59,588 nucleotides of DNA, from the NCBI GenBank assembly GCA_964541395.1, contig CAZIPM010000001.1:69833-129420 (forward strand), read 5' to 3'. A program made the position numbers and the translations under genes. The notes under the pieces are model-generated. The model did no database searches. It was not told the DNA's origin and saw only the letters and a list, made by a program, of their open reading frames with translations. This DNA is from an uncultured Gammaproteobacteria bacterium (GTDB lineage: Bacteria; Patescibacteriota; Microgenomatia; UBA8517). Positions 14,412 to 47,430 of this stretch are shown piece after piece. Position 1 is the first letter of the stretch. Every line of letters starts with the position of its first letter.

Positions 14412-15184
14412 AGACTCCTTTAATTTCTATAGTTATTCCTTCTTATAATAAGGTTAAATATATTGGTAAAACGCTAGAATCAATCGTAACACAATCATAT
14501 AAAAAGATTGAAGTTATTATACAGGACGGTGGATCTACTGATGGGACACTTGAGATTATAAAAAAATATTGTAGCAAATTTCCTTCTTTAATTGTTTATG
14601 AGACTAAAAAAGATAAGGGTCAACTTGATGCTGTTAATAAAGGGATGCTGAAGACTACCGGAGAATTAATTACTTTTATTAATGCAGATGATTGTTATGA
14701 ACAGGGTGCATTAGAAAAAGTTGCTAAGAGTTTTGAAAGAAACCCGAAATCTTTATGGTTTGCTGGAATGTCTAGGGTTGTAGATGAAAAAGATCAGGAA
14801 ATTGCCAAGTTAGTAACTTGGTATAAGAATATTTTATTAAAAATAAATAACTATAATTTACTTTTAATAACTAATTATATGATGCAACCATCTGTGTTTA
14901 TAACCAAAGCTGCATTTAATAAATATGGACCATTTACAGGAACCGATGAATTTATAATGGAGTATGATATGTGGCTTAGACTTGGTAAATATAAAATGCC
15001 TGTTATTTTAAAGATGAATTTATCCAAATTTAGAATTGAGTACACAACTAAAACTAAGCGAATTTTTAAAAAACTTTTAATTGAGGATGAAAAATTAGTA
15101 AACTATTACACTACAAATATTATTATTCTAATACTACATAAATTACATAATATTGGAAGGATATTTGTTGAAAAATTTGTATGA
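14408..15184 (+). CDS. GT2 glycosyltransferase (WcaE-like)
   Basis: SIVIPSYN, QDGGSTDGT, DKGQ.DAVNKG, INADD, QPSVF, EYDMWLR. Confidence 0.85.
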   Translation: MKTPLISIVIPSYNKVKYIGKTLESIVTQSYKKIEVIIQDGGSTDGTLEIIKKYCSKFPSLIVYETKKDKGQLDAVNKGMLKTTGELITFINADDCYEQGALEKVAKSFERNPKSLWFAGMSRVVDEKDQEIAKLVTWYKNILLKINNYNLLLITNYMMQPSVFITKAAFNKYGPFTGTDEFIMEYDMWLRLGKYKMPVILKMNLSKFRIEYTTKTKRIFKKLLIEDEKLVNYYTTNIIILILHKLHNIGRIFVEKFV

Positions 15185-16743
15185 TATTAGCTAATTTTAT
15201 AAAATATTTAAATCTGAAATTAATAAGTTTAGTATTAATACTCTCATTCTCATCATCTTTTATCTCATATTACCCATTATTAGTTTCCGGTCCGAAGGCG
15301 GTTTTTTCGAACTTTGAACCGCAGGTAGCATATATAGCTAATTCATTTAGTTATATGTATAGTGGAAAAATATCTTATTCTGCTCATCCTGGAACACCAA
15401 CAATTATTTTACATGCTTTGGCAATTGCTCCTCTTCGTATTTATACAAAATTTATAGAGAAGGTACCGTTTTACACTTGGGCAATTAATAACATACAGAG
15501 TCTTTTTTATTACCTAATTATAGTCCAATTGTTGGTTTACACGTTAGCAGTATCAATATTTCTGTTTTCTATATATAACATAACCAAAAAATATTTAGTT
15601 GTAGTATTTTCTTGGTTCGGACTTCTGGCATATTCTTATATGCCTTTTTTAGGAATTGTAATTCAGTCGGAGACTCTCTCCTTGCTGATAATTTCTATAT
15701 GGCTATTGATATTTACCAAATTTATACAAAAACGAAGTTTTTTAAATTACATTATTCTCTGTGCTCTATCGGGTTTAGCAGTAGCAAATAAACTTCCTAA
15801 TATATTTTTCATATTTTCCTCAATTCTGCAAGTATTTGCTTTTACTAAATTTACAGTTAAGTCAAAAATTAAAAATTTACTATTAGGATTATTTGTATCT
15901 ATTACCGTCTTTGTTATAGGTACTTGGCCTATTAGAGGTCAGTATAAAGGTCTTTTTACATGGATAGTTCAACTAGCTACAAGCAGTGGTGTTCATGGAG
16001 GTGGAGAAAAAACTATTTTTAGTTTAGCCAGATATTGGCAATCAATAGAAATATTTTGGATTCAAGAAAAAATACCTTTCTTGCTGGTTATTGGAACGCT
16101 TTTAGCATTTGTACTTTCAATTAGAAAGAATAATATAAAAGAAAGGACTCCTCTAATGATTTTACTTATAACTATTTCATTAGGTGTCGCTGTATTTCTA
16201 AAATATCCGCTTGTTCATTATCAACTATTACAATATACTGCCTTGCTTTTTGTTGCAAGTTATTTGCTATCCAGGATATTTAATCCAATTTTGATAATAA
16301 TAATAGGAATTCTTGCAATTTCTTCTTTAAATACTGCTACTCGGTATTTAAAATTCAACCTTGAGCAGATGGATAGGTCAATAAACTTGGAAAATTTTAT
16401 AATTAAGAACCCCCCAAAAAAAGGAACTGTATGGGAATTTGGAATGACGGAGGATTATACATTAATGCATATACGTGATTGGTCAGGAATTCCATTTGCA
16501 AATTTCCTAGAACAAGAACGACCAACATTATTCAATTTAACAACAGATATGTCTAAAGTCATCACGGGTTATGGGAAATATGAAGATCTTTTTAATGTAT
16601 GCTGGGATCAACTTTATATTCAAGGTACAGAGATAAAAAAATTTACAGCAAAATATCCAAATAAAATATTCAATTTTGTTCAAGTACCATACTCTACACG
16701 AGATATGTATATTTTATATTCTGATCATTGCACAAAGACGTGA
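15181..16743 (+). CDS. Polytopic membrane protein, probable GT-C glycosyltransferase
   Basis: E..Y in first loop, HPGTP, SE, GLAVANK; more than 10 TM plus a C-terminal soluble domain. Confidence 0.65.
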   Translation: MILANFIKYLNLKLISLVLILSFSSSFISYYPLLVSGPKAVFSNFEPQVAYIANSFSYMYSGKISYSAHPGTPTIILHALAIAPLRIYTKFIEKVPFYTWAINNIQSLFYYLIIVQLLVYTLAVSIFLFSIYNITKKYLVVVFSWFGLLAYSYMPFLGIVIQSETLSLLIISIWLLIFTKFIQKRSFLNYIILCALSGLAVANKLPNIFFIFSSILQVFAFTKFTVKSKIKNLLLGLFVSITVFVIGTWPIRGQYKGLFTWIVQLATSSGVHGGGEKTIFSLARYWQSIEIFWIQEKIPFLLVIGTLLAFVLSIRKNNIKERTPLMILLITISLGVAVFLKYPLVHYQLLQYTALLFVASYLLSRIFNPILIIIIGILAISSLNTATRYLKFNLEQMDRSINLENFIIKNPPKKGTVWEFGMTEDYTLMHIRDWSGIPFANFLEQERPTLFNLTTDMSKVITGYGKYEDLFNVCWDQLYIQGTEIKKFTAKYPNKIFNFVQVPYSTRDMYILYSDHCTKT

Positions 16744-16764
16744 CTATAATAATACATTTATATT

Positions 16765-17496
16765 ATGATTAATCAATTAACACCCTATCTTTTAGTAAAT
16801 AAATTATACTATAAGAATTTTACAGTCTATAAAAATTTATACTTTTTATATAAAAGAATTAAAGAAAGGGAAGAAGTGAGATTTTTGAATAGGAATATCA
16901 AACCTGAAATGAATATTATCGATGTGGGTGCAAATATCGGTTTCTATTCTTTAATTCTATCAGACCTAATTGGGTCGAAGGGTAATGTTTATAGTTTTGA
17001 ACCTGAAAAGAATAATTTTAATCACCTTAAAAAAATTTGTAGAAATAGGAAAAACATTCACTGTTTTAATTTGGCAGTAGGTGATATGGATAAAACAATA
17101 AATCTTTATGTTTCAAAAGAGTTAAATGTTGATCATCGTACGTTTGATAATAATGAAAAAAGAAAAATAACGCGAGTCAAATGCATCTCGATTGATAAGT
17201 TTTTCGAAAGAAAACACATAGATTTCATTAAAGTTGACACCCAGGGATTTGAGTTTAATGTCCTTAAGGGTATGTTAAAAACACTTAAATTATCAAAACG
17301 GATCCAAATATTGAGTGAATTATCAGTGTATGATATGAAAAAAGCAGGTGTAAATGCTAAAAAATATCTGGATTTAATTAAATCTTTAGGGTTTAAAATA
17401 ACGTATTTGGAAAAAGATTATAAAAAAAGATTATATGGAAATAACCAAAGCGATTTATCTTATGTAAATATAGTTGCCTCTAAAAAAATTAATTAA
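16765..17496 (+). CDS. FkbM family methyltransferase
   Basis: IDVGANIGFY, YSFEP, IKVDTQGFE. Confidence 0.9.
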   Translation: MINQLTPYLLVNKLYYKNFTVYKNLYFLYKRIKEREEVRFLNRNIKPEMNIIDVGANIGFYSLILSDLIGSKGNVYSFEPEKNNFNHLKKICRNRKNIHCFNLAVGDMDKTINLYVSKELNVDHRTFDNNEKRKITRVKCISIDKFFERKHIDFIKVDTQGFEFNVLKGMLKTLKLSKRIQILSELSVYDMKKAGVNAKKYLDLIKSLGFKITYLEKDYKKRLYGNNQSDLSYVNIVASKKIN

Positions 17497-18725
17497 AAAT
17501 TAAACTTTTTAAAAGCAAAGATAAACATTTTAAGAAGGAGCCAACCGTGTCTGAAACGACGGATGTTTGTTGTACCATAAACTCTTTCCTTGTATCTTAC
17601 GGGGATTTCAATTATTTTTAAATTTTGTTTAACAGCTCCAAAGATAAGATCGAAATCACCAAAAGGATCGAAATCACCAAAAAATTTTCTATTATCTTTT
17701 ATTTTTTCATAATCTCTTTTGAATAAGGCTTTTGTTCCACACAATGTATCTTTAAACCGTTGTCCTAGTACCCATGTAAAAAGCCAGCTAAAAATTTTAT
17801 TGCCAATCAGATTTAAAGTATTCATTGCCTCCTTTTCCATTGGATAAACAAGTCTGGAACCATTAGCAAATTCTGTGTCACCACTAGCTAAAGCCTGATA
17901 AAATTTAGGCAAGTCACGAGGTTCGACAGTCATGTCCGCATCAAGTATCATAAGGATATCTCCTTTTGCTTTGTCAAAACCCAACCTAACTGCATCTGCT
18001 TTTCCTTCGCCCTTTTGCTTAAATGCTCTAATTACAACATTATTCTTATAATATTTGCGTAATACTATATTTATTACATCCCAAGTATCATCGGTAGAAT
18101 ATCCTTCTACGAATATTATTTCCTGAAATTTTCCAAATCGAGGAATTTTTTTAAGAATAATTGGAATATTTCCCTCTTCATTTCTGCAAGGGATAATTAT
18201 TGAAACTGAAAAGTTTTTATCAAAATGATGTTCATGTTTTGCTAAAATCCAAGTTTTTAGGCAGAAGATATTAATTAAAGGAAGCGAAGCGATCCATTTG
18301 TTTACAAAATTCGATATAAAAGGTATATATATTGGAATTAGAAGTCTTCTGTGGGTTGAAATGATTTCAAAACCTGAAAGTTTTAATAGATTTGAAATAT
18401 CATTATTATCTAGCCAATTTTGTTCCTCTATTTCCTCTCTCCAACCTATAAATGTTGCCATTTTAAGTATAGGTCTCCATAAAAAATTATAGTAAGTGAC
18501 TAAAAATCTGGAATTATGGTGCGAATTATTTTTTATCCTAGAGAAAAATTTTTGTACATCTTTTACATCACCTATAATTTCATCTGCTATTATTAAGTCG
18601 CTTTTCTTATCAGGTTTGGAATATTCATCCATAATAAAAGATAATTTTGTGTTTTTTGATGATAAAAACTTAATAAGATTTTTAGTGTCCTTTTTGTAAT
18701 ATAATTTTATTTTACTAGTAGCCAT
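17493..18725 (-). CDS. GT2 (DPM1-like) with degenerate N-terminal methyltransferase-like domain
   Basis: IIPCRNEEGNI, VEGYSTD, GKADAV..GF, ILDADMTV, DTLCGTK, DPFGDFDL, RYKERVYG; the N-terminal ~165 aa lack a GxGxG motif. Confidence 0.8.
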   Translation of the reverse strand: MATSKIKLYYKKDTKNLIKFLSSKNTKLSFIMDEYSKPDKKSDLIIADEIIGDVKDVQKFFSRIKNNSHHNSRFLVTYYNFLWRPILKMATFIGWREEIEEQNWLDNNDISNLLKLSGFEIISTHRRLLIPIYIPFISNFVNKWIASLPLINIFCLKTWILAKHEHHFDKNFSVSIIIPCRNEEGNIPIILKKIPRFGKFQEIIFVEGYSTDDTWDVINIVLRKYYKNNVVIRAFKQKGEGKADAVRLGFDKAKGDILMILDADMTVEPRDLPKFYQALASGDTEFANGSRLVYPMEKEAMNTLNLIGNKIFSWLFTWVLGQRFKDTLCGTKALFKRDYEKIKDNRKFFGDFDPFGDFDLIFGAVKQNLKIIEIPVRYKERVYGTTNIRRFRHGWLLLKMFIFAFKKFNF

Positions 18726-18837
18726 ACTATATATACTATTTATATTGCTATTATAGAAATAGATTTAAAATAAACAATACAGACAATAAATATTTTAGAT
18801 ATTGCTAATGTGAAAAATTTGGTTAGTATTATTGTTT

Positions 18838-19461
18838 ATGGATAACAAGAAGTTCAACAGTTCAACCTACTTGGGACTTATATCCGAGATATCAGACAAA
18901 TTCCGAAATTCTAAAGAATATGAAAAAGCAATTGAAATACTACTTAAATGTTTAAAAGATAAGGGCACAGTTTTTACAATGGGATGTGGTGGATCAGCAT
19001 CCACTGCCACTCATTTCACTGCAGACTTGGCAAAAACTACTATAACAAACACAGGTGATCCCAAAAGATTCAAAACTATGGCTTTAGTTGATAATATTCC
19101 ACTAGTAAGTGCCTGGATAAATGATTTTGGGTGGAACTCAATTTTTGCTGAGCAACTAAGACCATGGCTAAATGCAAAAGATGTAATAATAGGTTTTTCT
19201 GTACACGGTGGAAGCGGGGAGATGGATGCTGGTCCTTGGTCTCAAAATTTGATTTCTGCTATGAAATTAGCAAATGATATTGGGGCAAAAATTATTGGTT
19301 TTTCCGGATTTAATGGTGGTGCGATGAAAAAAATGGCTGATGTATGTTTGGTTGTTCCAATAACAGATGAAATATATGGTACGGCGGTAGTTGAAGCAAT
19401 GCATGTAGTGCTCCATCACGGTTTAATTTTTGATATAAAGGAAAGAATGAAAAATGCCTAA
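18838..19461 (+). CDS. gmhA: SIS-domain phosphosugar isomerase (GmhA/LmbN-like)
   Basis: GCGGSASTATHF..DL, AWINDFG, IF.EQL, GFSGFNGG, E.MH; ATG 18838 preferred to TTG 18832. Confidence 0.8.
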   Translation: MDNKKFNSSTYLGLISEISDKFRNSKEYEKAIEILLKCLKDKGTVFTMGCGGSASTATHFTADLAKTTITNTGDPKRFKTMALVDNIPLVSAWINDFGWNSIFAEQLRPWLNAKDVIIGFSVHGGSGEMDAGPWSQNLISAMKLANDIGAKIIGFSGFNGGAMKKMADVCLVVPITDEIYGTAVVEAMHVVLHHGLIFDIKERMKNA

Positions 19462-20302
19462 TTTTGAGAGACTATCCATGAAAGGATCGGGAATATTTTT
19501 CGATTCGGCCAATTTAACCGAACTTAAAAAATGGTACAAAACTAGGATTTTAGGTGGAGCCACTACAAATCCGGTGATTCTTCAGAAAGATGGAGTATTT
19601 GATATACCAACACACATTCAGAATATGATAAATATTGTAGGAGATGGCTTCCCGATATCTATAGAAATACCTGATTCAAGATGGACTATTGATCAGATGA
19701 CTTCACTTGCTGTTAAATATCATAATCGATTTCCCAACAATGCTGTAATTAAAATCCCTATGGATCCCAGAGATCCGGAAAAAGCTTTTGAAGTCATCTA
19801 TAAACTTGGTCTAGAAGGTGTGCGTATAAACGCTACGGTAGGTTTAAATGTAGGACAACTAATTGGTGCTGCTGAATCTCTGCGCATGAGTAAAGCTGAT
19901 GGTGATAATTACGTTAGTTTGTTTTGGGGGAGAAGAAATGAAGCAAAGAATCAAATTATTGAAAAAAAGATTGAAGAAGCTAGATTAACTGGTAAAGATG
20001 ATTGGAGTGAAGTAAAGGAAACAAATCTTAGGCAACAACTGCAAACAGTAATTCCCGATGCTGCTGTAACGTTAGCTATGACACTAAATTATTTGAATAC
20101 ACACAGTTCCGCAACCAGAGTTATTGTCGGAAGCGTTAGAAGTGTAGAGCAAATTGAGCAAGCGTTTAGGGTGGGATCGGATATAGTGACTATCCCACCC
20201 CAATTAATATGTGATTGGATGTATACACAAAAAGGGGTAGAAACTGTAGATCAATTTAATGAAGCGTATGCTAGTGCTAAGGATAAAATTACTCTAATTT
20301 AA
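19454..20302 (+). CDS. Transaldolase family protein (TalC/LmbR-like)
   Basis: FFDSAN, GATTNP, SIE, VIKIP (Schiff-base Lys), INAT, YVSLFWGR, GSVR, DIVTIPP. Confidence 0.85.
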   Translation: MPNFERLSMKGSGIFFDSANLTELKKWYKTRILGGATTNPVILQKDGVFDIPTHIQNMINIVGDGFPISIEIPDSRWTIDQMTSLAVKYHNRFPNNAVIKIPMDPRDPEKAFEVIYKLGLEGVRINATVGLNVGQLIGAAESLRMSKADGDNYVSLFWGRRNEAKNQIIEKKIEEARLTGKDDWSEVKETNLRQQLQTVIPDAAVTLAMTLNYLNTHSSATRVIVGSVRSVEQIEQAFRVGSDIVTIPPQLICDWMYTQKGVETVDQFNEAYASAKDKITLI

Positions 20303-20881
20303 TAGATTTTTAATTATATTAAATAACACTTCTATATTTTCTGAGCAATATTTATTTTTGAGGGAATAGATTTTATCAACTTTTTCTTTAAGGTCATTTC
20401 TATGTAAAAAAATTATGGGGATACACCCAGCTGCACTAGAAGCTAAATAATCGGATTCTTTATCTCCCAAGAAAACGCTATTGTTAAGGTCAATATTATT
20501 TTCTTTTGCTGCTTTTATTATTAAACCAGCATTAGGTTTTCTGCAATCACAAATACTTTTATATTTTTTTATGACAGAATTGGGGTGGTGCAGACATTTA
20601 TAAATATTATTAACTTTAGCACCATTTTTATTAAGAAGTTTCTGAATTCTTGTTTCTATAGAATTGCTTATTTTTAAAGTTATTTTTCCTTTAGCGACAG
20701 CTGGCTGGTTAGTAATTTCTATAACAGGTATATTCTCGTTATTACACCAAGTTATTATTTCACTTATGCCTGAAACTAATTCTACATCACTCACTTTTAG
20801 AGGTGAATCCCAACCTGAATCATAATTTACTAATTTATTTATAACCCCATCTCTATCAAGAAATAATGCCTTTTGAATCAT
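20294..20881 (-). CDS. gmhB: GmhB-like HAD sugar-bisphosphate phosphatase
   Basis: FLDRDGVIN, ITNQP.VA.G, CLHHP...CDCRKP, GDKESD. Confidence 0.9.
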   Translation of the reverse strand: MIQKALFLDRDGVINKLVNYDSGWDSPLKVSDVELVSGISEIITWCNNENIPVIEITNQPAVAKGKITLKISNSIETRIQKLLNKNGAKVNNIYKCLHHPNSVIKKYKSICDCRKPNAGLIIKAAKENNIDLNNSVFLGDKESDYLASSAAGCIPIIFLHRNDLKEKVDKIYSLKNKYCSENIEVLFNIIKNLLN

Positions 20882-21865
20882 TTAAAAATTTACTATTACT
20901 CTACTACCCTGGTAATCAAAATTAAATGGGATATGCTGTAATTTATTTTTTTCTAATACTTGAATCAGATTTGGAGCATTTTGATCGCAGTAGAATAAGA
21001 AAAAACCACCGCCACCTGCTCCCATTATCTTTCCGCCAACTGAACCGTTTTTGACTGCAATTTCATACCATTTGTCAATTTTTAAGTTAGTTGTCTTTGC
21101 TCTCGATTTTTTTAATAACCAATGTTTATGCATAAGTTCACCAAAATTCTTTGAGTTTCTATCTTTTAGGGATTTTTCAATTTCTAGACCTAATTGTTGA
21201 ATGCTTTTAAGATTATCGATTATTAATTTATTATTTATATCAGTAGCCTTTTTTTGATACGATAATATTATGTTAGACTTTCTTCTAATACCTGTAAAAA
21301 ACATATACAAGTAGTGTTCTAATTCCCTGATAAAAATTTCGTCAAACTCGTTTAGATATACTTTTACCTTACCCTTTTTATCTATACTAAATTTTGTAAC
21401 ACCACCGAATGAAGCTATAAATTCATCCTGTTTACCGCTCGGTTGTTTTAATATGTCTATGGCTATATGACAAGCTTCTTCTGCCAATTGCTCCTGGCTA
21501 ACCAGCTCGCGTTTGAATGTGTGTAACGCATTAAGAAGGCCCACGGTAAAAGCTCCCGACGATCCAAGACCAGTTTCTCCACCGATCTCCGACATTGAAA
21601 TAATTTCAAGAGGTTTTAATATTTTCATATACTTTAAACATTCTCTGATAATTTCATTTTTAACCTCTGATACATACGGAGTTGTCTCGGTTCTAGAATA
21701 TTTAATTAGAAATTCTTTGTAATATTTTCTTTCTTGAAGAATGACATAAATATATTTATCAATAGCAGCTGAAATAAATTTACTACCAAATTTTTTATAA
21801 AATGATGGCAAGTCGGTACCACCACCTCCTATTGAAATCCTCATTGGTGTTTTGGTTATTATCAT
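20882..21865 (-). CDS. hddA: GHMP sugar-phosphate kinase (HddA/LmbP-like)
   Basis: TPMRISIGGGGTDLP, GLGSSG, GKQD, GGKIMGAGGGGF. Confidence 0.85.
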   Translation of the reverse strand: MIITKTPMRISIGGGGTDLPSFYKKFGSKFISAAIDKYIYVILQERKYYKEFLIKYSRTETTPYVSEVKNEIIRECLKYMKILKPLEIISMSEIGGETGLGSSGAFTVGLLNALHTFKRELVSQEQLAEEACHIAIDILKQPSGKQDEFIASFGGVTKFSIDKKGKVKVYLNEFDEIFIRELEHYLYMFFTGIRRKSNIILSYQKKATDINNKLIIDNLKSIQQLGLEIEKSLKDRNSKNFGELMHKHWLLKKSRAKTTNLKIDKWYEIAVKNGSVGGKIMGAGGGGFFLFYCDQNAPNLIQVLEKNKLQHIPFNFDYQGSRVIVNF

Positions 21866-22836
21866 TCTAATTTGTAGTAAATTTTAGAAATAATTCTTAA
21901 AACATCCAAACCTTCTTGCCCTGAACCTATTAACTTACTGTGATTTTTAATAGAATTTTTAAAATTTAACCACTCTAGAGACCATGATTTATCAAGTCCG
22001 TCATATTCCCTGACAATTTCTTTAGGTGCTTTGCCTGGAATTCTTTTACCGACTATTAACTTCTCTAATCCATAACTACCTCCTAAACCATCAATTATTA
22101 AGTAACCCTTAGTTCCAAATATTTCGTACCTAAATTTATTTTTCCATTCGGTCCAGCTAGCATGTAGCGTAGCAATAGATGTCTTATTCTTTAATAACAC
22201 AAATGCATTATCCTCAACCTTAATTGGCCAAAAGAAAGTTTTTATTTTTGCCGAAATATCTTTCGGTATATCTTTCATAAACCATAATGATAAGTCTATC
22301 AGGTGAGCGCATTGATCGATAAGTTCACCGCCACCTGAAATTTTCTTATCCATTCTCCACTCCATCTCATATCCTGGTCTCCCTCCATGACCATACACAC
22401 CTCTTATATACATTAATTTTCCAATTTTGCCCTTATCGAATAGTTCTTTTGCCTGGTTAATAGCAGGATGGAATCTGTGGTTATATCCTGCTTTATAAAT
22501 TAAGTTTTTCTTTAAAGCTAATGAAACACATTTTTTAATTTCTACTGAGTTGAAACCTAAAGGTTTTTCGCATAGAACATGTTTACCAAAAGATAGTGCC
22601 CGATATGACAATTTTGTTAGATGATTATGTGTAGTCGCTATAACAATACATTCAATTTCATTATCTTCAAATATTTCGTTATTATTTGCAACTGTACTCC
22701 CTTTTACCATTTGTGAAAGAATCTTGGCTTTAGAAATGTTTGTGTCAGATATCAAAACTACCTGATCGCCATTTGCTAAAATGGATTTAGCTCTTTTCTC
22801 TCCAATTAATCCCGCACCAATTATTCCTACTTTCAT
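21862..22836 (-). CDS. Gfo/Idh/MocA family oxidoreductase
   Basis: IIGAGLIG, HVLCEKP, GYNHRFHP, YGHGGR, GGGELIDQ..H..DL. Confidence 0.9.
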   Translation of the reverse strand: MKVGIIGAGLIGEKRAKSILANGDQVVLISDTNISKAKILSQMVKGSTVANNNEIFEDNEIECIVIATTHNHLTKLSYRALSFGKHVLCEKPLGFNSVEIKKCVSLALKKNLIYKAGYNHRFHPAINQAKELFDKGKIGKLMYIRGVYGHGGRPGYEMEWRMDKKISGGGELIDQCAHLIDLSLWFMKDIPKDISAKIKTFFWPIKVEDNAFVLLKNKTSIATLHASWTEWKNKFRYEIFGTKGYLIIDGLGGSYGLEKLIVGKRIPGKAPKEIVREYDGLDKSWSLEWLNFKNSIKNHSKLIGSGQEGLDVLRIISKIYYKLE

Positions 22837-23672
22837 ATTTTCTCCAACTTATCTAGTGTATATTGGTCAATTCTTCGCATTGTATACCAATCATTGCTAC
22901 TAATAATATCTAACGTCTTGTCTGTCCACCTACTCCAATCATCATAAATTGCAGAAATGGTTTTACCTGTTATTTTATTTGATGACCCGGAAAGCCAAAG
23001 ACAAAGTTTCGCAGCTAGTACGGGATTATCCCCCCCGCTCTTTTGTTGCTTTATCAGTTTGTCCCATTCCAATTTACCAACATTATTCTTGCCAGCTTTT
23101 AACATTAAATTAAACATTTTTGTGTTTATAGCTCCAGGGGCAATAGCATTAACTTTAATATCTTTAGATTTTAGCTCTAATGCCAATATTTCTGTAAGTC
23201 TTACAACTCCGGCTTTCGAAACTGCGTAAGCCGAAAAGTTCTGTCTGGGTAATACTGCACCCCCACCCGAAAAATTGATGATACTTCCACCTTTTTTAAT
23301 CTTTGGAAGACACAAATAAATTACATTGTATGTCCCAATTAAATTGATGTTTACTGTTTCAACCCAATCGTCATTCTTGTTTTTAGAAATAGGTCCAATA
23401 GGGCCTTGAATGCCAGCAGCATTGATTAGGACATCAATCCTTTTGAGGGGGAATAACATCTTTTTAAGTTTCTTGAAATTGGAAATATCGCATACTAGCG
23501 TATTAACTTTACCTCCTAAACTTTTCAGGTTATTCTTTGTTTGTTCAAGTTCCTTTTTGTGCCTTGATATGATAGTTAAATCGTATCCTTCCTTTGCAAA
23601 TTCTTGTGCGATAACCTTTCCGATACCCCCGCTTGCTCCGGTAATTAAAGCTATTTTATTTTTTATCGGCAT
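22833..23672 (-). CDS. SDR family oxidoreductase
   Basis: TGASGGIG, INAAGIQGPIG, SGGGA, YAVSK, VNAIAPG. Confidence 0.9.
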   Translation of the reverse strand: MPIKNKIALITGASGGIGKVIAQEFAKEGYDLTIISRHKKELEQTKNNLKSLGGKVNTLVCDISNFKKLKKMLFPLKRIDVLINAAGIQGPIGPISKNKNDDWVETVNINLIGTYNVIYLCLPKIKKGGSIINFSGGGAVLPRQNFSAYAVSKAGVVRLTEILALELKSKDIKVNAIAPGAINTKMFNLMLKAGKNNVGKLEWDKLIKQQKSGGDNPVLAAKLCLWLSGSSNKITGKTISAIYDDWSRWTDKTLDIISSNDWYTMRRIDQYTLDKLEKI

Positions 23673-24372
23673 ATTTTTTTGCTAGAATACTAACGGATAA
23701 CAACGAATCATAAGTCCCAGTATCACCCCATTTATCTATTCGCCTAATTAATTTTAAGGTATTGTTTTTTATGTATAGTGAGTTCAATTCAGATATTTCA
23801 AGCTCTCCTCGTGCAGAGGGTTTTAAGATAGCTATATAGTCAAACACATTTTCATCGAACAAGTGAGGACCCGTCACAACCAAATTTGTTTTAGGTTTTT
23901 TTGGTTTTTCTTCTATCCTAATTAATTTATTATTCTTGAATATCGGAACTCCGTATCTTTGTGGATCCTGAACCTTTCTTAGAAATGATACCGCCCCTTT
24001 TTTGAAGTTTAAGACTTCTTTAGTAAAGTCACGGTTATAATAATTATCACCAGCTATAACAATAATATTATTATTTTTAAAAATATTTTTACATCTTGCT
24101 ATAGCATCAGGCATCCCACCGGGAGTTGGTTGGACAATATAGCGTAATTTTACACGTTTCGGTTTAGGAAAAAATTCGATAAGTTTTCTAATTTGTTGTC
24201 CGAATGGCGGACCGCTAACTACAGCAATATCTTTCAGGCCAGAGTCTATCAATGTTTGAAGTGACCAATAGAACATTGGTCTGTCGTAAACTGGAAGTGT
24301 ATGTTTGTTGATTACATGTGTACTAGGATATAACCTTGTTCCCAGTCCACCAGCTAGAACTATACCCTTCAT
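23656..24372 (-). CDS. Sugar-1-phosphate nucleotidyltransferase (RmlA/SpsI-like short form)
   Basis: GIVLAGGLGTRLYP, NKH.LPVYDRPM, GDN, EEKP..PK, PSARGELEI, W.DTGT. Confidence 0.85.
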   Translation of the reverse strand: MKGIVLAGGLGTRLYPSTHVINKHTLPVYDRPMFYWSLQTLIDSGLKDIAVVSGPPFGQQIRKLIEFFPKPKRVKLRYIVQPTPGGMPDAIARCKNIFKNNNIIVIAGDNYYNRDFTKEVLNFKKGAVSFLRKVQDPQRYGVPIFKNNKLIRIEEKPKKPKTNLVVTGPHLFDENVFDYIAILKPSARGELEISELNSLYIKNNTLKLIRRIDKWGDTGTYDSLLSVSILAKKYADKK

Positions 24373-25493
24373 TTTTTATTTACCTTTCGTATAACTTTAT
24401 TTTTCATCATAAATGCAAAAGCCTCATCAGATTTGTCCTCTATCTTACCTTGTTCCACGAGCCAATTTTTATACTGTTCTAAAGATTTCTCAAGTAGGAC
24501 CTTGGGTTCCCATCCTAAATTTTTCAATTTACTAATACTTGAAACTGTGGACCTGGTGTCGCCAACCCTGAATATTCCTGGAACTTGTGGCTCAAGGGTT
24601 GATTGGAAGACATTTATCATTGTATTTGCTAGCTGAATGGCAGTATAAGGTTTCCCTCCACCTACGAAAAAGACTTGATTATCTGCCTTATGGTTTTCAA
24701 GTACCAGTAAATTTGCCCTTGCTACGTCTGACACATTAATATAATCTCTCATACCTAAGCCGTCTTCAAAAAGAATTGGAGCCTTTCCGTTTAATAATCT
24801 CATTGCAAATACTCTGGCAATTCCAGAATAAGCGTTGTGTATAGAATTTCTTGGGCCTTGAACATAAGTATACCTCATACAGACAGTGGGGATATTATAT
24901 TTTTTACCCAATACATTTGCTAGTAATTCTATCGAGTACTTTGATATCCCATATGTGGTAATGGGTTTTATAACATCCTCTGTCATGAGAACATTTTTTG
25001 AGTCATCATGACATATTGGGCATTTTATTTCCCAACTTCCCTGCTCAAGCTGCTTTATAGGTCTTTGTTCAGCCCAAAATTGACCATGTTTACTACATTT
25101 CCACTTTCCATCTCCCGATACCGCTTGTGAAGAAGCAAATACAATTTTTTTGATCGGTAATTTATTGGCAAGAATCAACTCAAAAATGAGAGCTGTACTC
25201 TCAGTATTTGTATGAATGAAAGAGCTAAAATCAGGTAAATAGTCTTGGTATGCAGCTAGATGATAAATAACATCAACACCCTTTAAACTTTTTAATAAAT
25301 CTTTAGGATTTGATACATCACCTTTTATAAATTCCACTTCCTTCGGTATATATTTCGGTTTTCCGTTAGGGTGCACTCTTTCCTGAAGATTGTCTAAGAT
25401 CGTGACTTTGTAGCCCTTAGACAATAATAAATCTACTGTATGGGAACCTATAAAACCTGCACCTCCAGTAACTAGAATTTTTCTGTATTCCAC
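24369..25493 (-). CDS. NAD-dependent nucleotide-sugar epimerase/dehydratase with Cys/His insertion
   Basis: LVTGGAGFIGSH, HLAA, ASS, YGISK, RDYINVSD, RVGD. Start set at GTG 25493 (TGcTAAAAT 7 nt upstream), since the longer track start overlaps the divergent gene. Confidence 0.85.
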   Translation of the reverse strand: MEYRKILVTGGAGFIGSHTVDLLLSKGYKVTILDNLQERVHPNGKPKYIPKEVEFIKGDVSNPKDLLKSLKGVDVIYHLAAYQDYLPDFSSFIHTNTESTALIFELILANKLPIKKIVFASSQAVSGDGKWKCSKHGQFWAEQRPIKQLEQGSWEIKCPICHDDSKNVLMTEDVIKPITTYGISKYSIELLANVLGKKYNIPTVCMRYTYVQGPRNSIHNAYSGIARVFAMRLLNGKAPILFEDGLGMRDYINVSDVARANLLVLENHKADNQVFFVGGGKPYTAIQLANTMINVFQSTLEPQVPGIFRVGDTRSTVSSISKLKNLGWEPKVLLEKSLEQYKNWLVEQGKIEDKSDEAFAFMMKNKVIRKVNKK

Positions 25494-25524: not shown

Positions 25525-26595
25525 ATGAAGACTAAGCTAAAACTAAGTATCGTTATACCCTGTTTAAATGAAAGGGGAACGATAAAAATAGCCATAGATG
25601 ATGCAAAGAAAAATATATTACTTTATTTCGGTAAGAATTATGAATTAATAGTAGCCGATAATGGAAGTACAGATGGAACCTTAAATATTTTAGAAAAGGA
25701 AAAAAACATAAAAGTAATTCATGTTCCAGTAAGAGGATATGGAGCAGCCTTACATTGGGGTATAACAAATGCTAAAGGAGAATATATAATTTTTGCTGAC
25801 GCAGATTTAAGTTATCCATTTTCTAATATTAAATATTTTGTAGAAATAATAAAAGATAACCCCGATTTGGTTTCTGGATCCCGTTTTGCTGGTACAATCC
25901 AAAATGGGGCAATGCCTTTTCTACATAGGTATATAGGCACTCCAATTCTAACATTTCTCATAAATATTCTTTATAACATGAAGATATCAGATTGTAACTC
26001 AGGAATGAGAATGGTGAAGAAGTCATTTTATAAAAAATTGAACATGACAAGTTCGGGTATGGAATGGGCAAGTGAGTTATTATTAAAAACTGCCTTAAAA
26101 AAAGGAAAATATATCGAAGTACCTATAAAATATCTTAAAGACAAAAGGGGAAAGTCTCCCCATCTATCAACGTGGTCTGATGGATGGAGACAGCTTAAAA
26201 GTATAATATTACTAAAACCTCAAAGTTTATATCTGGGTTTGATTTTCTTTTTTTTAACCTCATTGATATTTTATAATATAAATTTCACTTTAACATATCT
26301 ATTTGCCGAATTATTTGTTGTATTATTTTTAAGTCTTCTAACTCTTAATCTGATAGGAACTACTATTGAACACAAAACAACAAAAATTTCAAAATTTTTG
26401 ATTGAGTTTAAGCTTGTTCCAATTACGGCTATTGTATCTTTAATGGTAAGTGCATTTGCTATTTTAATTCCGGAATCAAGGCTTGGCACAAAACTTTTTC
26501 TAATTAGTATATTGGGAGTAATTTTTATGTGGATATTCTTTATAGAAACAATAAAAACTCATTTAATAAATAAATTACCAAAGAATGACAAATAA
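25525..26595 (+). CDS. GT2 polyprenol-phosphate glycosyltransferase with C-terminal TM domain
   Basis: IPCLNE, ADNGSTDG, RGYGAAL, ADADLSY, GSRF, DCNSGMR, GMEWASE, DGWR; four C-terminal TM. Confidence 0.85.
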   Translation: MKTKLKLSIVIPCLNERGTIKIAIDDAKKNILLYFGKNYELIVADNGSTDGTLNILEKEKNIKVIHVPVRGYGAALHWGITNAKGEYIIFADADLSYPFSNIKYFVEIIKDNPDLVSGSRFAGTIQNGAMPFLHRYIGTPILTFLINILYNMKISDCNSGMRMVKKSFYKKLNMTSSGMEWASELLLKTALKKGKYIEVPIKYLKDKRGKSPHLSTWSDGWRQLKSIILLKPQSLYLGLIFFFLTSLIFYNINFTLTYLFAELFVVLFLSLLTLNLIGTTIEHKTTKISKFLIEFKLVPITAIVSLMVSAFAILIPESRLGTKLFLISILGVIFMWIFFIETIKTHLINKLPKNDK

Positions 26596-27406
26596 TACCC
26601 CAAAATTTTCAGTAATTATTCCTGCATATAAAAGAAATGAAATTGTAAAAGTGGCAATCTTTTCTATTCTAAATCAAAACAATTTTTCAAAAAAACAAGT
26701 TGAAATAATTATTTCAGATGATGAGGATGATATAAATATAAGAAAAATTAATAGGAATTTCTTTAGTGACGTTTACAAAGATACGGTTTACACAATGAAT
26801 GTTAATGAAGAAGGTCCCGGCGGAAATAGGCAAAGTGGATTTGATTTAGCAAAGGGTAAATATGTAATATTTCTAGACTCAGATGATAGATTAAAGCCGA
26901 ACTTTCTGTTAGAAATGGAAAACGGAATAAATAAAATAGATTGTGTCTCAAGTGTATGCTTCTCAGTATCATTATTTGAAAAAGGATTTAGTGTTAAAGA
27001 GAAGCTAAAACTATTACCCTTAATATTTATTAGAGATGTGTCACTTTATGCTGGATACCTGTTTAACAAAAAAACGATTTATCCATCGTCATTCTATTTA
27101 TGTCAGATCTCACACATGATGTTTAAACGTAAGATGATAGAAGAACAAAAATTTAACTATGATTATAGACGAGGGGGAGAAGACTGGGATTTTTTTGTTC
27201 AAACATTAAAGAAAGGCAGCATCGCAATAATACCCAAGAAATTAGTTATTTTTAGATATTCAAAAGGTAGCTCAACGGATAGTTTAATAAATAAGATAAA
27301 TAAATGGAACTCATATAGATTATTACGAAGCAGACTAACAAATAAGTTTCAAAAATGGCCATACTTCCAGTTAATGGGAGCTTACATAAAAATCTTTGGA
27401 AAATGA
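26585..27406 (+). CDS. GT2 glycosyltransferase
   Basis: FSVIIPAY, ISDD, GPGGNR..G, FLDSDD, GEDWDF. Confidence 0.85.
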   Translation: MTNNTPKFSVIIPAYKRNEIVKVAIFSILNQNNFSKKQVEIIISDDEDDINIRKINRNFFSDVYKDTVYTMNVNEEGPGGNRQSGFDLAKGKYVIFLDSDDRLKPNFLLEMENGINKIDCVSSVCFSVSLFEKGFSVKEKLKLLPLIFIRDVSLYAGYLFNKKTIYPSSFYLCQISHMMFKRKMIEEQKFNYDYRRGGEDWDFFVQTLKKGSIAIIPKKLVIFRYSKGSSTDSLINKINKWNSYRLLRSRLTNKFQKWPYFQLMGAYIKIFGK

Positions 27407-28101
27407 TTAAAAAATATAAAAAGGGCAATAAAGTTTGGATTAAAGAAGGTAAAAAGACAATTACTAAAACAAAACACTTGTTAGGGTCTTTAGTTGGAAG
27501 TGTTCGCACTGAACAATTTAGTATTTTTAAAACTCATTTAAAACCCTCAAAAATAAGTATTATCATAGATGTCGGAGTTTCATCTGAGGAAGACATTAAG
27601 GGAACAAACATGTTTGAAAAATTGTACGAATTTCCGAGAAAACTTACATTAGCGACAATAGAAAATGAGAAAAAATTAAAAAGTATTTACCCAAATTGTA
27701 AAGTAGTTAAAATATTACCAAATAAGAAACTACCATTCCCTGACAAATCATTTGATATAGCTGTTTCCTGGGCTACGGTTGAACATGTTGGCAATTATAA
27801 AGATCAAGAATTTTTCTTAAACGAACTTATCAGAATTGCTAAGAAAGTATTTGTTACGACACCCTATAGAGGGTGTTTTTACGAACCTCACTCTGGATTT
27901 ATTTTTATACATTGGCTACCCTTAAGTATTTTTAGATGGATTTGTAAAATTCTAGGTAAAACATACTGGTCAGATGTTAATAATTTAAACCCGCTTAATG
28001 TAGATAATATAAAAAATATGAAGTTAAAGAGAAAACCAAAAATAAACGTTTATAAAATGTTTGGTATTCTACCCAGCCATTTACTAATTATTATTAACTA
28101 A
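27403..28101 (+). CDS. Class I SAM-dependent methyltransferase
   Basis: IIDVG, LPFPDKSFD, ATVEHVG, VTTP, EPHS..FIHWLP; ATGA overlap at 27403. Confidence 0.8.
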   Translation: MIKKYKKGNKVWIKEGKKTITKTKHLLGSLVGSVRTEQFSIFKTHLKPSKISIIIDVGVSSEEDIKGTNMFEKLYEFPRKLTLATIENEKKLKSIYPNCKVVKILPNKKLPFPDKSFDIAVSWATVEHVGNYKDQEFFLNELIRIAKKVFVTTPYRGCFYEPHSGFIFIHWLPLSIFRWICKILGKTYWSDVNNLNPLNVDNIKNMKLKRKPKINVYKMFGILPSHLLIIIN

Positions 28102-28114
28102 TAAAACAGAAAAC

Positions 28115-29005
28115 ATGCCTAAAAAACATAAATACATAATTACAGGTGCTACAGGAAAAATAGGTACAGAACTTATTAAAGTATTAAATAAAGATGATTA
28201 TATTGTATTTACCAGATCCCCAAATAAATTAAACAAATCAATTCGTAAATTTGTTGTAGATCTTTCTAAAGATATAACTATCCCAAAATTTAAAAAATAT
28301 GACACTGTTATTCATTTAGCAGCAGAAACCCATATTGATAGATGCGAAATAGATAGAGAAAAAAAGGAATTTAGTTTAGCGTGGATAAATAATGTATTAG
28401 TAACTAAGCATTTAACGGATTATTGTTTGGTTAATAATAAAAAATTGATAATGTTATCTACAGAATGCGTTTTTGGTGGAAGAAAAAAAAGTTATTCAGA
28501 AAAAGATAAGCCTTCACCAATAAATTGGTATGGAGTAACTAAAAACGAATCTGAAAAGATTATATTGAAAAATTTAAAAGAGTTTGTTGTTTTAAGAACG
28601 GTAATGGCGTATGGTGGTGTATCTAAGAAAATAGATTTACCTAAATATATTTTTAGTGAATTAACTAAAAATAACGTAGTACATTTGTCAAATAACCAAA
28701 AAATAGCCTTTACACATACAAGCGACATTGTTGAAGCTATCTTACTGTCATCTCAAAAAAACATTAATGGAATTTATCATTTTTGTGGTCCAGACGTTTT
28801 ATCACCATATGAATTGGGTAAAATTATAGCTAAAATATATAAGTTTAAAAAAAATTTATTAGTATCTAAGACCCTGAAAGAAATACATGGTGTAAAAATG
28901 GCTAAATTAAGGCTAAAATATTCTGTATTAACAAATAAGAAATTTATAAACACAACGGGTTATAATTCATTCACCGATTTAATAAATGGTTTAATGTTTA
29001 AATAA
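28115..29005 (+). CDS. RmlD-like NDP-4-keto-6-deoxysugar reductase
   Basis: ITGATGKIG, IHLAA.T.ID.CE, STECVFGG, Y.E.D.P.PINWYGVTK. Confidence 0.8.
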   Translation: MPKKHKYIITGATGKIGTELIKVLNKDDYIVFTRSPNKLNKSIRKFVVDLSKDITIPKFKKYDTVIHLAAETHIDRCEIDREKKEFSLAWINNVLVTKHLTDYCLVNNKKLIMLSTECVFGGRKKSYSEKDKPSPINWYGVTKNESEKIILKNLKEFVVLRTVMAYGGVSKKIDLPKYIFSELTKNNVVHLSNNQKIAFTHTSDIVEAILLSSQKNINGIYHFCGPDVLSPYELGKIIAKIYKFKKNLLVSKTLKEIHGVKMAKLRLKYSVLTNKKFINTTGYNSFTDLINGLMFK

Positions 29006-29857: not shown

Positions 29858-31765
29858 ATGAAGCTTTATGATTACTTTCAACCCTTGAACTTAAAGAACA
29901 TATTTATATGTATCGCATTATTCATATTTTTTGATATTGTAGGAACACTTTTCAAAAATATAATATTAAGAAGCAATAAAGTATCTGAAGGAAGCAGGTT
30001 GATCAATTGGATAATAGGATTAGGATTATTTGTATTTATATGGTTCTTAATTGGATTTTACATTATACCAACTCAACTAAATATTTTAATATGCATACTA
30101 ATCTTATCAATAATTTGTACCCCATTTTATATTAGAAATAAAGAATATAAAGAATTATCAATCGAATTTAAATTTATTTGGCCTGGAATAGTAATAATTG
30201 TACCACTATTACCCGCAGTATTTGTAAAGGCGTCTTTACCGCCATATTACGCAGATGAAATGGCATACCATTTTATATCACCATACGCAGTAAACAATTT
30301 GTTAAGCACATTTTGGAATTTTGATGGTGGTGCTTTAATGAATGCTCCTCGTTTAATGGATACTTTTTTCATTACCATATTTTCTCTAACAAAAACCTAC
30401 TCCATTATTAGATTGTTTTTGTTTGGAATATTGGCAACCAGTTTATTATATGTGTTTCGAAACTTGAAAAATTATTTTAATATATGGACTGGGATACTGT
30501 TTTTACTACTGTTTCTAGGTCTTCCTCAAGATATAGTTTTTACTTCAACGATCGGTTACGTTGATATATCTTCATATGCGTTCTTAATGATCGGATATTT
30601 AAGTGCTGCAGTATTTTTGTTTGATACAAAAAGAAATGACTTATTAATAATATCATCAATATTCTGGGGGATGTCACTTGGTACAAAGTATCCAACCCTT
30701 AATGCTTTTGGTGCTTTTATTTTATCATTTAGTTTAATCTTCTTGTTATTTATCAAAATAAAAAATAAAAAATATATTTTCCACACCTTACTTAAAAGTT
30801 TTATATTAATTTTTATATTTGGAGGGTACTGGTATTTAAAAAATTTAATTGTTTATGGAAACCCCATATACCCATTTGTATTTTCATGTTGGGGTAAATA
30901 TGTTAGCGACTGTAAAACTGGATCAAATTTTTTTGGAGACTGGACAACAAAAATTACCTTGGATAATTTAATTCCGATATTTAATTCACTTCTACCTGGA
31001 AAACTTATATTAACTTATTTATCTTTTGTTACCCCAATATTTTTATTCTTCAAAAAAGGAAAATTTACAAAAATTTTTCTCCTTTTAGCTATAATAACTT
31101 TTGTAATCGAATTTATCTCTCTGAAATTCATGTCTGGTTTTCAGGTTAGATATCAGCAGCACATGCAGTTCTTTCTTCTTTTATCAATTTCTATTTCGAT
31201 GTTTTATTTTGTTAGGTATTTTAAATTCAACGGATTAGTAAAATATACAACAGTACTGATATTTGTTTTTTTTGTATTGATAAATTATATAAGAGTTGTA
31301 AAGACAACCAATAGTCTTCTAACGGTAACTTGGAATGAAATAAATTATTCGGTATCAAAAATTGATATCTACGATTGGGTAAGAATAAGACTTCCCAGAA
31401 TAGCGGATGCAATATTCTGGTGTGAGAATCCTCCTGGTGGGCAAAAAGGAATTGCAAGATTTGATCCTGATATGATATGGTATGAGGACGATGGATTCAT
31501 GCGTTCGTTTTTAGTAAATTGCTATTATGAAAATCCATCCATTATAACTTCTTCTGAAAAAGAGATGCTAACGGATGCCAAAAATAAGAAATTAAAGTTT
31601 TGGACGGCAACAATAAATAAATGCATGAATCCGGACAAAATTGTTGCAAAAAGGGTTGGGGAAAGTCCAGAAGAAGTTGAGATGAGGAAAGTAAACAACA
31701 TGATGGTGTGCAATTCAAAGGAAATTATGCCTAATTTCTATCTTTTTGATTATCAGGAATTGTAA
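29858..31765 (+). CDS. Large polytopic membrane protein, probable GT-C glycosyltransferase
   Basis: PP...DEMAYH, GYVD, GTKY, WYLKN...YGNPIYPF, RY; Cys-containing C-terminal soluble domain. Confidence 0.7.
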   Translation: MKLYDYFQPLNLKNIFICIALFIFFDIVGTLFKNIILRSNKVSEGSRLINWIIGLGLFVFIWFLIGFYIIPTQLNILICILILSIICTPFYIRNKEYKELSIEFKFIWPGIVIIVPLLPAVFVKASLPPYYADEMAYHFISPYAVNNLLSTFWNFDGGALMNAPRLMDTFFITIFSLTKTYSIIRLFLFGILATSLLYVFRNLKNYFNIWTGILFLLLFLGLPQDIVFTSTIGYVDISSYAFLMIGYLSAAVFLFDTKRNDLLIISSIFWGMSLGTKYPTLNAFGAFILSFSLIFLLFIKIKNKKYIFHTLLKSFILIFIFGGYWYLKNLIVYGNPIYPFVFSCWGKYVSDCKTGSNFFGDWTTKITLDNLIPIFNSLLPGKLILTYLSFVTPIFLFFKKGKFTKIFLLLAIITFVIEFISLKFMSGFQVRYQQHMQFFLLLSISISMFYFVRYFKFNGLVKYTTVLIFVFFVLINYIRVVKTTNSLLTVTWNEINYSVSKIDIYDWVRIRLPRIADAIFWCENPPGGQKGIARFDPDMIWYEDDGFMRSFLVNCYYENPSIITSSEKEMLTDAKNKKLKFWTATINKCMNPDKIVAKRVGESPEEVEMRKVNNMMVCNSKEIMPNFYLFDYQEL

Positions 31766-47423: not shown

Positions 47424-47430
47424 ATTATTT

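Follow-up and report, generated by a model that had tools for sequence, protein, structure and literature searches.

A transaldolase-led gene cassette in a surface-glycan locus of a Candidate Phyla Radiation bacterium as a probable higher-carbon sugar nucleotide pathway

Why does a bacterium of the Candidate Phyla Radiation (CPR), with a genome of only 1 Mb, carry a transaldolase gene in the middle of a surface-glycan locus? The question is raised by a stretch of 59,588 nucleotides (hereafter the window; GenBank assembly GCA_964541395.1, contig CAZIPM010000001.1, positions 69,833–129,420, GTDB lineage Patescibacteriota, Microgenomatia, UBA8517), in which eight genes at 18838–25493 place a transaldolase with a sugar-phosphate isomerase, a kinase, a phosphatase, a nucleotidyltransferase and three oxidoreductases. 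Our comparison of these genes with family models, solved structures and related genomes indicates that the eight very probably constitute a dedicated higher-sugar nucleotide pathway. The best explanation, which we hold with about even confidence, is a transaldolase-primed pathway to a nucleoside diphosphate (NDP)-activated higher sugar, of eight carbons (C8) rather than seven by odds only a little better than even, that serves the surrounding 60-kb surface-glycan locus.

The window sits on contig C1 of the genome G000 (997,370 bases, 22 contigs, 97.6% complete; L-numbers below denote loci and G-numbers genomes) and has a G+C content of about 31%. A listing of open reading frames (ORFs) combined with Pfam and NCBIfam scans confirms the eight genes and their division into two convergent units as initially annotated, each unit being tightly coupled (spacing between successive genes of −8, −9, 0, −4, −4, −17 and −4 bases). 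The plus-strand unit is formed by a SIS isomerase (18838–19461, with an alternative start at 18832; Pfam SIS_2) and the transaldolase (19454–20302; TAL_FSA PF00923, 87.8 bits against a cut-off of 27). From the junction onwards, the minus-strand unit holds a GmhB-like HAD-IIIA phosphatase (20294–20881; Pfam HAD-like), a GHMP-family sugar-phosphate 1-kinase akin to HddA (20882–21865; GHMP_kinases_N/C), a Gfo/Idh/MocA dehydrogenase or ketoreductase (21862–22836; GFO_IDH_MocA) and a classical short-chain dehydrogenase/reductase (SDR; 22833–23672; adh_short, 155.8 bits), both assigned to tailoring steps, an RmlA-type nucleotidyltransferase (23656–24372; NTP_transferase, 151 bits) and an extended SDR resembling NDP-sugar epimerases (24369–25493), which has an insertion of about 45 residues and matches Epimerase in two stretches. 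The longest ORF of the extended SDR reaches 25595, with relatives of about 370 residues favouring the start at 25493. A contig of 2,559 bases, obtained from a different sample within the same groundwater study, corresponds to 18779–21337 with zero differences and spans the convergent junction.

Is this grouping peculiar to one genome? The transaldolase family has 233 matches in a collection of 5.8 billion proteins, and the organism names among the matches listed are all CPR; names on homologues include Woesebacteria, Gottesmanbacteria and Zambryskibacteria, which suggests that the window comes from a Woesebacteria-like member of the CPR. Scanning species-representative genomes with very specific peptide patterns gave 11 related CPR-type loci. 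The SIS gene directly precedes the transaldolase in all 11, and a cassette-type kinase of 40% identity or more is present in all but L008, where the contig stops just behind the transaldolase; phosphatase orthologues (41–49% identity) are present in seven and a Gfo/Idh/MocA gene in six, several of the contigs being short. Pfam assignments give L002, L004, L005, L007 and L010 a shared layout, in which the SIS–transaldolase pair meets a convergent phosphatase–kinase pair, followed by a member of the UDP-glucose/GDP-mannose-dehydrogenase family (UGDH-like), a Gfo/Idh/MocA gene, an insertion-bearing epimerase (43–44% identical to that of the window in L002, L005, L007 and L010), a nucleotidyltransferase and family 2 glycosyltransferase (GT2) genes. 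Full cassettes were found in L025, L026, L027, L032 and L033, and on plasmid 3 of Lawsonia intracellularis (NC_008014), whose annotated block reads SIS protein, HAD-IIIA hydrolase, transaldolase, nucleotide sugar dehydrogenase, SDR, Gfo/Idh/MocA, "galactokinase" and nucleotidyltransferase. Identity to the Lawsonia cassette is 43% for Gfo/Idh/MocA and 40% for the kinase, and the window SDR shares 34–41% identity with its cassette counterparts in L010, L012 and Lawsonia. A tblastn search of plasmids gave only fsa/transaldolase genes, with 25–29% identity to the window transaldolase.

The nearest variants, in G157 and G248, carry the whole set at 38–73% identity to the window (epimerase 73%, SIS 60–62%, nucleotidyltransferase 54–61%, Gfo/Idh/MocA 54–55%). 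Even in the distant class members G036, G032 and G255, whose transaldolases are only 28–32% identical, the set stays together, with kinase, SIS, nucleotidyltransferase, phosphatase, transaldolase, SDR, UGDH-like, Gfo/Idh/MocA and epimerase-like genes. The SIS–transaldolase pairing at 11 of 11 loci, and the recurrence of all eight genes in G157 and G248, show that the arrangement is not due to chance. Within the cassette family, the window is a sub-variant defined by RmlA-type activation and the absence of a UGDH-like step. The records of L002, L004, L009 and L012 are titled "uncultured Gammaproteobacteria" or "uncultured Pseudomonadales", and their cassette genes resemble those of CPR loci; the genome of L012 is G045, which is placed in the window's class, so that the title of this record at least looks wrong.

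Are these then heptose enzymes under another roof? We judged heptose identity by the NCBIfam equivalog cut-offs. Heptose models are the top NCBIfam match for the isomerase, kinase and phosphatase, yet the scores lie far beneath the cut-offs: 80.9 bits for the isomerase with TIGR00441 (cut-off 209.45) and 72.2 with NF010546 (276), 123.2 for the kinase with HddA model NF049969 (600), and 103.4 and 102.4 for the phosphatase with the GmhB models NF006506 (178) and TIGR00213 (149.6). The nucleotidyltransferase reaches 51.8 bits with HddC model NF049965 (300). The phosphatase passes the HAD-IIIA models TIGR01656 (96.7 against 84.15) and TIGR01662 (65.1 against 44.6).

Motif comparison separates two groups of isomerases. 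We aligned 12 transaldolase-linked SIS proteins with seven canonical CPR GmhA-like proteins, excluding the Lawsonia row. From published structures, we take H-x-x-x-E to be the catalytic and metal motif of GmhA, with Glu as catalytic base, and STSGNS to be its phosphate loop. The H-x-x-x-(D/E) motif ends in Asp in all 12 transaldolase-linked proteins and in Glu in all seven canonical ones; the phosphate loop reads SV(H/G)GG with an insertion of 7–11 residues in the former (12/12) and STSG(N/Q)-S in the latter (7/7). The C-terminal IQE of canonical GmhA is also altered in the transaldolase-linked set, with Gln replaced by Glu in nine of the 12. The window isomerase has H-F-T-A-D, and S-V-H-G-G plus a nine-residue insertion in place of STSGN-S. 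Judged by these motifs and by its scores, it belongs to a GmhA-like, transaldolase-linked subfamily and is not a GmhA equivalog.

Canonical heptose genes exist in the same class, on their own terms. Our class sample contains 16 genomes with a canonical-scoring GmhA (150–226 bits), and 14 of these have no transaldolase match; therefore the supply of sedoheptulose-7-phosphate and heptose synthesis in the class need none. In G045, a canonical GmhA (208 bits) coexists with a cassette SIS (87 bits) beside a transaldolase. On L008, a GmhA-like gene, a 569-residue HddC–HddA fusion and a GDP-mannose-4,6-dehydratase-like gene (1636–4874) lie beside the SIS–transaldolase pair; these canonical-type genes score 184 (NF010546), 158 (TIGR00441), 215 (HddA) and 167 (HddC), which is under the cut-offs too, yet about twice the scores of the cassette enzymes. 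Sequence comparison thus supports a module for dedicated higher-carbon-sugar activation, as distinct from the canonical GDP-manno-heptose pathway.

What, then, is the transaldolase? Its D17, E71, K100, N126, T128, S155, F157 and R160 align with the Thermoplasma acidophilum transaldolase 3s0c and with 6ys0, and the active-site columns, including S227 and R229 of a Ser-x-Arg motif, are invariant across 15 family members. From work on Escherichia coli TalB and FSA (fructose-6-phosphate aldolase) and on T. acidophilum Tal, we take the Asp, the Glu and the Schiff-base Lys to be the catalytic positions and Ser-x-Arg to be the phosphate site; FSA has Gln in place of the Glu and Tyr in place of the Phe. 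By these residues the window protein is a short-type transaldolase proper, not an FSA-type aldolase, and it looks catalytically intact. An insertion of about 40 residues (around 164–203) was considered as a specificity element and rejected, its length being variable and the element missing from family members of 237 residues.

A genome search returns 19454–20302 as the sole TAL_FSA gene of G000, leaving no second, housekeeping tal. G000 encodes transketolase and RpiB; ribulose-phosphate 3-epimerase (PF00834) was searched for in this 97.6%-complete genome and not found. In 40 other genomes of the window's family (one per genus), transketolase is present in 37 and any PF00923 match in one, and that one match is the cassette copy of L004. 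The simpler alternative offered by the initial annotation, that the transaldolase compensates for a reduced pentose phosphate pathway, loses ground with these counts. When 300 other genomes of the class were sampled, 31 proved to encode a transaldolase-like protein that matches the window's; with G000 counted, a GmhA-like SIS gene lies within 4 kb in 13 of the 32, and most of the remaining genomes have short transaldolases of about 220 residues, nine of them belonging to a single family, f29. Four of 15 cassette genomes have a second transaldolase, in two cases 1–1.5 kb from transketolase. An unrooted maximum-likelihood tree of 59 transaldolases contains a clade of ten rows (support 100/99), of which four are transketolase-adjacent (Listeria and Clostridium fsa beside tkt, G305 and G309) and six are f29-type genes and the second copy of G308. 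All 23 SIS-linked or fused transaldolases, that of the window included, fall outside this transketolase-linked clade. The fusions comprise single transaldolase–GHMP-kinase ORFs in G101 (L028:8539–10236, 565 residues) and G175 (L029:8510–10171, 553 residues), and a database protein of 410 residues (P0154) that joins a transaldolase to a HAD-IIIA phosphatase. Synteny, fusions and distribution together tie the transaldolase to the sugar pathway. The amino-acid composition of P0154 suggests a G+C-rich organism.

Which nucleotide would carry the sugar? The nucleotidyltransferase scores 192.7 bits with TIGR01207 (cut-off 360.65), far above its 51.8 bits for HddC, and 182.5 bits with Bacillus anthracis RmlA (3hl3), in agreement with the initial annotation, which had called it RmlA-like rather than HddC-like. 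An alignment to five solved RmlAs shows that it conserves the GGxGTRL loop, DN, YG, EEKP, the Val of VTG, RGELEI and Trp-x-Asp-Thr-Gly-Thr, together with a Gln that we take to be Q83 of Escherichia coli RmlA, the thymine/uracil contact. It departs from them in having TGPH where all five have TG(L/I)Y, and a Met at the position that we take to correspond to L89 of the E. coli enzyme. The substitutions, which read TGPH and QP(T/S)P(G/A)GM, are common to all three cassette copies (window, G157 and G248), whereas neither the RmlA-like gene of L031 nor any of the five solved RmlAs has them. Other cassettes use other enzymes: the slot after the epimerase in L002, L004, L005, L007 and L010 holds an unrelated nucleotidyltransferase closest to archaeal GlmU-type and long RmlA models, that of L012 is ManC-like and that of Lawsonia MurU/HddC-like, from which it follows that the activating enzyme has been swapped repeatedly. 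On the RmlA-type match and the conserved RmlA residues, the carrier nucleotide is probably dTDP or UDP and not GDP, a doubt about GDP that had been voiced at the outset.

The tailoring genes give looser indications of chemistry. The best solved relative of the epimerase-like protein is the Thermotoga maritima UDP-glucose 4-epimerase 4zrm, and it carries a YGISK (YxxxK) motif; those of the Gfo/Idh/MocA protein are DgpA (7xr9) and levoglucosan dehydrogenase (6a3f), which oxidise sugars at C3. No orthologue of the cassette UGDH-like dehydrogenase was found in G000 (the best tblastn matches, at 22–29% identity, are three general UGDH genes). G157 and G248 retain this gene, the window being the only member of the sub-variant without it.

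The initial annotation had also set the module against the lincosamide GDP-octose pathway and pointed to a DegT aminotransferase at 36262 as a counterpart of LmbS. The gene is there (36262–37389), but it is LegC/PseC-like, lies 10.7 kb from the module with at least nine genes between, and directly follows a small, weakly WbuC-like cupin gene with a 4-base overlap (the pair spanning 35855–37389). We therefore rejected it as LmbS; the DegT–cupin pair probably serves an amino-sugar branch of its own within the locus. No DegT was found among the Pfam-scanned ORFs flanking the cassettes of L002, L004, L005, L006, L007, L008, L010 and L012. The idea of a dedicated higher-carbon-sugar module survives, carried by the sub-cut-off heptose scores, the SIS motifs and the transaldolase linkage, and the aminotransferase drops out of it.

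Genes on both sides of the module indicate where its product might go. Upstream, on the plus strand, lie a PMT_2-like GT-C glycosyltransferase (15181–16743) and an FkbM methyltransferase (16765–17496), both identified by Pfam, and then, on the minus strand and divergent from the isomerase gene, a GT2 glycosyltransferase with an extra N-terminal domain (GT2a, 17493–18725; Pfam/NCBIfam). Orthologues of GT2a (51–60% identity) adjoin the cassette in L012, L032 and L033; in L012, orthologues of the GT-C gene (34%) and the FkbM gene (42%) stand in the same order beside GT2a, SIS and transaldolase, and the GT-C counterpart in L033 is 26% identical. GT2a is likely to be a user of the cassette product. 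Its candidacy as a polyprenyl-phosphate transferase was dropped, since it has no clear transmembrane segment and a second enzyme, GT2b (25525–26595, plus strand), fits better: this membrane GT2 resembles polyprenyl-phosphate sugar synthases (AglJ, dolichyl-phosphate hexose transferase, PpgS), begins 31 bases from the epimerase gene and has hydrophobic C-terminal segments at residues 226–348. A GT2b orthologue (51% identity) adjoins the L025 cassette, as do orthologues of the next two plus-strand genes, GT2c (26585–27406, 45%) and a methyltransferase (27355–28101, 50%); GT2c further matches genes in L012 and L033. A 635-residue polytopic membrane protein (29858–31765) with no Pfam match has a 29% identical counterpart beside the same L025 cassette, which makes it a candidate for a polymerase or GT-C-like enzyme that has so far escaped recognition.

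The window as a whole is a glycan island. By Pfam it holds many GT2 and GT4 genes and four PMT_2-type GT-C genes, with FkbM and other methyltransferases, a Wzm/Wzt ABC exporter and a flippase-like gene. The exporter (46170–48264), whose ATPase has the Wzt C-terminal carbohydrate-binding domain, is of the kind used for O-antigen-style export and here occurs in a CPR genome, where an outer membrane would be unexpected. The island also contains a gene for an AbiEii-type nucleotidyltransferase toxin, preceded by a small ORF (7383–8298), and, at 8345–9880, a single ORF of 511 residues that joins an N-terminal VKOR (vitamin K epoxide reductase) domain to a dihydroorotate dehydrogenase domain.

How might the enzymes work in series? 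In the route we propose, the transaldolase would move a dihydroxyacetone unit from fructose-6-phosphate or sedoheptulose-7-phosphate (the presumed donors) to an aldose phosphate, with ribose-5-phosphate as the likeliest acceptor, giving octulose-8-phosphate as LmbR does. The translationally coupled SIS isomerase would convert this to the aldose 8-phosphate, the GHMP kinase would phosphorylate C1, the HAD-IIIA phosphatase would remove the distal phosphate and the RmlA-type nucleotidyltransferase would form a dTDP- or UDP-sugar. The extended-SDR epimerase, the Gfo/Idh/MocA enzyme and the classical SDR could then alter stereochemistry by oxidation and reduction. Flanking GT2 enzymes would hand on the sugar, probably via polyprenyl phosphate, to GT-C transferases acting outside the membrane, and FkbM-type methyltransferases may O-methylate it.

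Other explanations have to be set against this route. One makes the transaldolase a housekeeping pentose-phosphate enzyme that merely lies beside a heptose-like operon, as might be expected of the only TAL_FSA gene in a nearly complete genome that encodes both transketolase and RpiB. Against this, the window's relatives keep transketolase and dispense with transaldolase (37 and 1 of 40 family genomes, the one copy being in a cassette), the gene overlaps its isomerase neighbour by eight bases, the pairing with SIS holds at 11 of 11 loci, kinase or phosphatase fusions occur elsewhere, and the protein falls outside the transketolase-linked clade; we consider the housekeeping reading close to refuted. 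A different objection concerns one component and is compatible with any other reading, namely that the nucleotidyltransferase is an ordinary RmlA for a separate dTDP-hexose pathway, working with the RmlD-like gene at 28115–29005 and leaving the cassette with no activating enzyme of its own. The 182.5-bit match to 3hl3, the conserved nucleotide and glucose-1-phosphate contacts (at positions that we take from E. coli RmlA) and the RmlD-like gene only 3.7 kb off all suit this proposal, and a cassette-type nucleotidyltransferase was not found in G000. However, the gene is embedded in the operon by overlaps of 4 and 17 bases, occupies the same post-epimerase slot as the nucleotidyltransferase of five relatives, recurs with the same substitutions in the cassettes of G157 and G248, and scores below the RmlA equivalog cut-off, which makes an ordinary RmlA unlikely.

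The other alternatives concern chain length. Judged from the sequences, an eight-carbon product stands at about even chances, and a seven-carbon one (C7) takes about a third of our credence. For C7, the transaldolase would make sedoheptulose-7-phosphate from fructose-6-phosphate and erythrose-4-phosphate, and the divergent GmhA-like isomerase, kinase, phosphatase and nucleotidyltransferase would yield a dTDP- or UDP-heptose to be epimerised by the three oxidoreductases. Much of what favours a modified heptose weighs directly against our preferred octose route. The closest solved structures to the isomerase (Campylobacter jejuni GmhA, 1tk9) and the kinase (3k85, 4usk and 4n3o) are heptose enzymes, as are the top NCBIfam models of these two proteins and the phosphatase; the transaldolase active site is ordinary, erythrose-4-phosphate being by sequence as acceptable as ribose-5-phosphate; and transketolase, which G000 and 14 of 15 cassette genomes encode, should make erythrose-4-phosphate available. 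Heptoses are frequent in glycans, whereas an unbranched octose is not known to us from any bacterial surface glycan. Further points against the octose route are the Trp that the nucleotidyltransferase keeps from RmlA, which we take from the engineering of Salmonella RmlA to crowd C6 substituents and to fit a hexose better than a longer-tailed sugar; the lack of the UGDH-like gene kept by most relatives, whose product the window's need not equal; and the fact that 11 of the 15 cassette genomes, G000 among them, have no transaldolase besides the cassette copy, which could there serve central metabolism too. What holds the seven-carbon alternative below the octose is that the enzymes score far under the heptose equivalog cut-offs, at about half the level of canonical-type CPR heptose genes, that the isomerase motif changes mark 12 of 12 transaldolase-linked proteins and none of seven canonical ones, that canonical GmhA occurs without a transaldolase match in 14 of 16 class genomes, and that canonical genes stand alongside the cassette in G045 and on the L008 contig. 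A dedicated transaldolase is also, as general knowledge has it, unneeded in the heptose pathways described. A further variant would have another acceptor, a hexose phosphate or arabinose-5-phosphate, and lead to a nonose, another octose isomer or a soluble metabolite outside any glycan. The remodelling of the isomerase phosphate loop has no parallel in GmhA and nothing in the data fixes the acceptor, two points in favour of this variant; precedent is lacking, though, and the logic of kinase, phosphatase and nucleotidyltransferase with flanking glycosyltransferases points to a glycan building block, so we rate it as quite improbable.

Should the product prove to be an octose, many bacterial phyla would possess a whole class of surface sugars that has gone unnoticed, and the lincomycin sugar pathway would have an everyday ancestor. 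More specifically, we suspect, with slightly less than even confidence, that the widespread cassette represents the primary-metabolism form from which the lincosamide sugar pathway descends and that the envelopes of such CPR bacteria bear a true eight-carbon aldose, in this case activated as a dTDP- or UDP-octose and delivered via a lipid carrier and GT-C transferases; octoses would then join the bacterial surface sugars, and the source of the Streptomyces lincosamine pathway would be explained. Even with a heptose as its product, the cassette would add to the known route to activated heptoses another that depends on a transaldolase and has its own isomerase subfamily. As regards the CPR, a 1-Mb genome with no housekeeping transaldolase would be keeping one for envelope glycan synthesis alone, in line with the large share of a reduced genome devoted to the cell surface. 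In either case the cassette is conserved and biochemically uncharacterised, and its type of pathway has so far been studied only in lincomycin biosynthesis.

How does the module compare with known systems? With the conserved transaldolase-led cassette of nine other CPR genomes and Lawsonia NC_008014, it shares the five-gene core and the SDR and Gfo/Idh/MocA tailoring genes; with G157 and G248 it forms the sub-variant that has an RmlA-type nucleotidyltransferase, and of these three the window alone is without the UGDH-like dehydrogenase. The pathway to GDP-D-glycero-alpha-D-manno-heptose (GmhA, HddA, GmhB and HddC) uses the same four folds in the same order of chemistry, namely ketose-phosphate isomerase, anomeric kinase, distal phosphatase and nucleotidyltransferase. 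It has no transaldolase, however, and we know of no described heptose pathway that needs one of its own; none of the four window enzymes reaches its equivalog cut-off, Asp replaces Glu in the isomerase, whose phosphate loop is also remodelled, and the nucleotidyltransferase is RmlA-type.

Among characterised pathways, only the lincosamide octose route, known from Streptomyces lincolnensis and S. caelestis, combines a transaldolase (LmbR/CcbR) with an isomerase (a domain of LmbN), a kinase (LmbP), a phosphatase (LmbK) and a nucleotidyltransferase (the guanylyltransferase LmbO); an epimerase and oxidoreductases come next, the later enzymes being LmbM, LmbL, LmbZ and LmbS. In the literature searched, which left most subscription journals outside its coverage, no octose pathway beyond the lincosamides was found described. 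Homologue searches reach into Streptomyces, Allokutzneria and Rhodococcus, in entries named only "transaldolase family protein", and neither LmbR nor CcbR of S. lincolnensis or S. caelestis is among the matches listed; one family member, P0063 from Woesebacteria, was named CcbR by its submitter, a best-hit name that carries no evidence of orthology. According to PMC5854111, LmbR makes octulose 8-phosphate from fructose-6-phosphate or sedoheptulose-7-phosphate plus ribose-5-phosphate. The Lmb/Ccb function tables of PMC12945683 and PMC4351081 list transaldolase, isomerase, kinase, phosphatase, nucleotidyltransferase, epimerase, dehydrogenase and oxidoreductase, with LmbN, LmbP, LmbK and LmbO leading to GDP-octose. 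The two systems differ in that the window nucleotidyltransferase is RmlA-type, with dTDP or UDP likely in place of GDP, the window isomerase has no carrier-protein domain, and the window has a classical SDR and no linked aminotransferase. Matched by these function lists, the window otherwise offers one gene for every function of the lincosamide route except the aminotransferase, in a CPR surface-glycan locus where Streptomyces has an antibiotic cluster.

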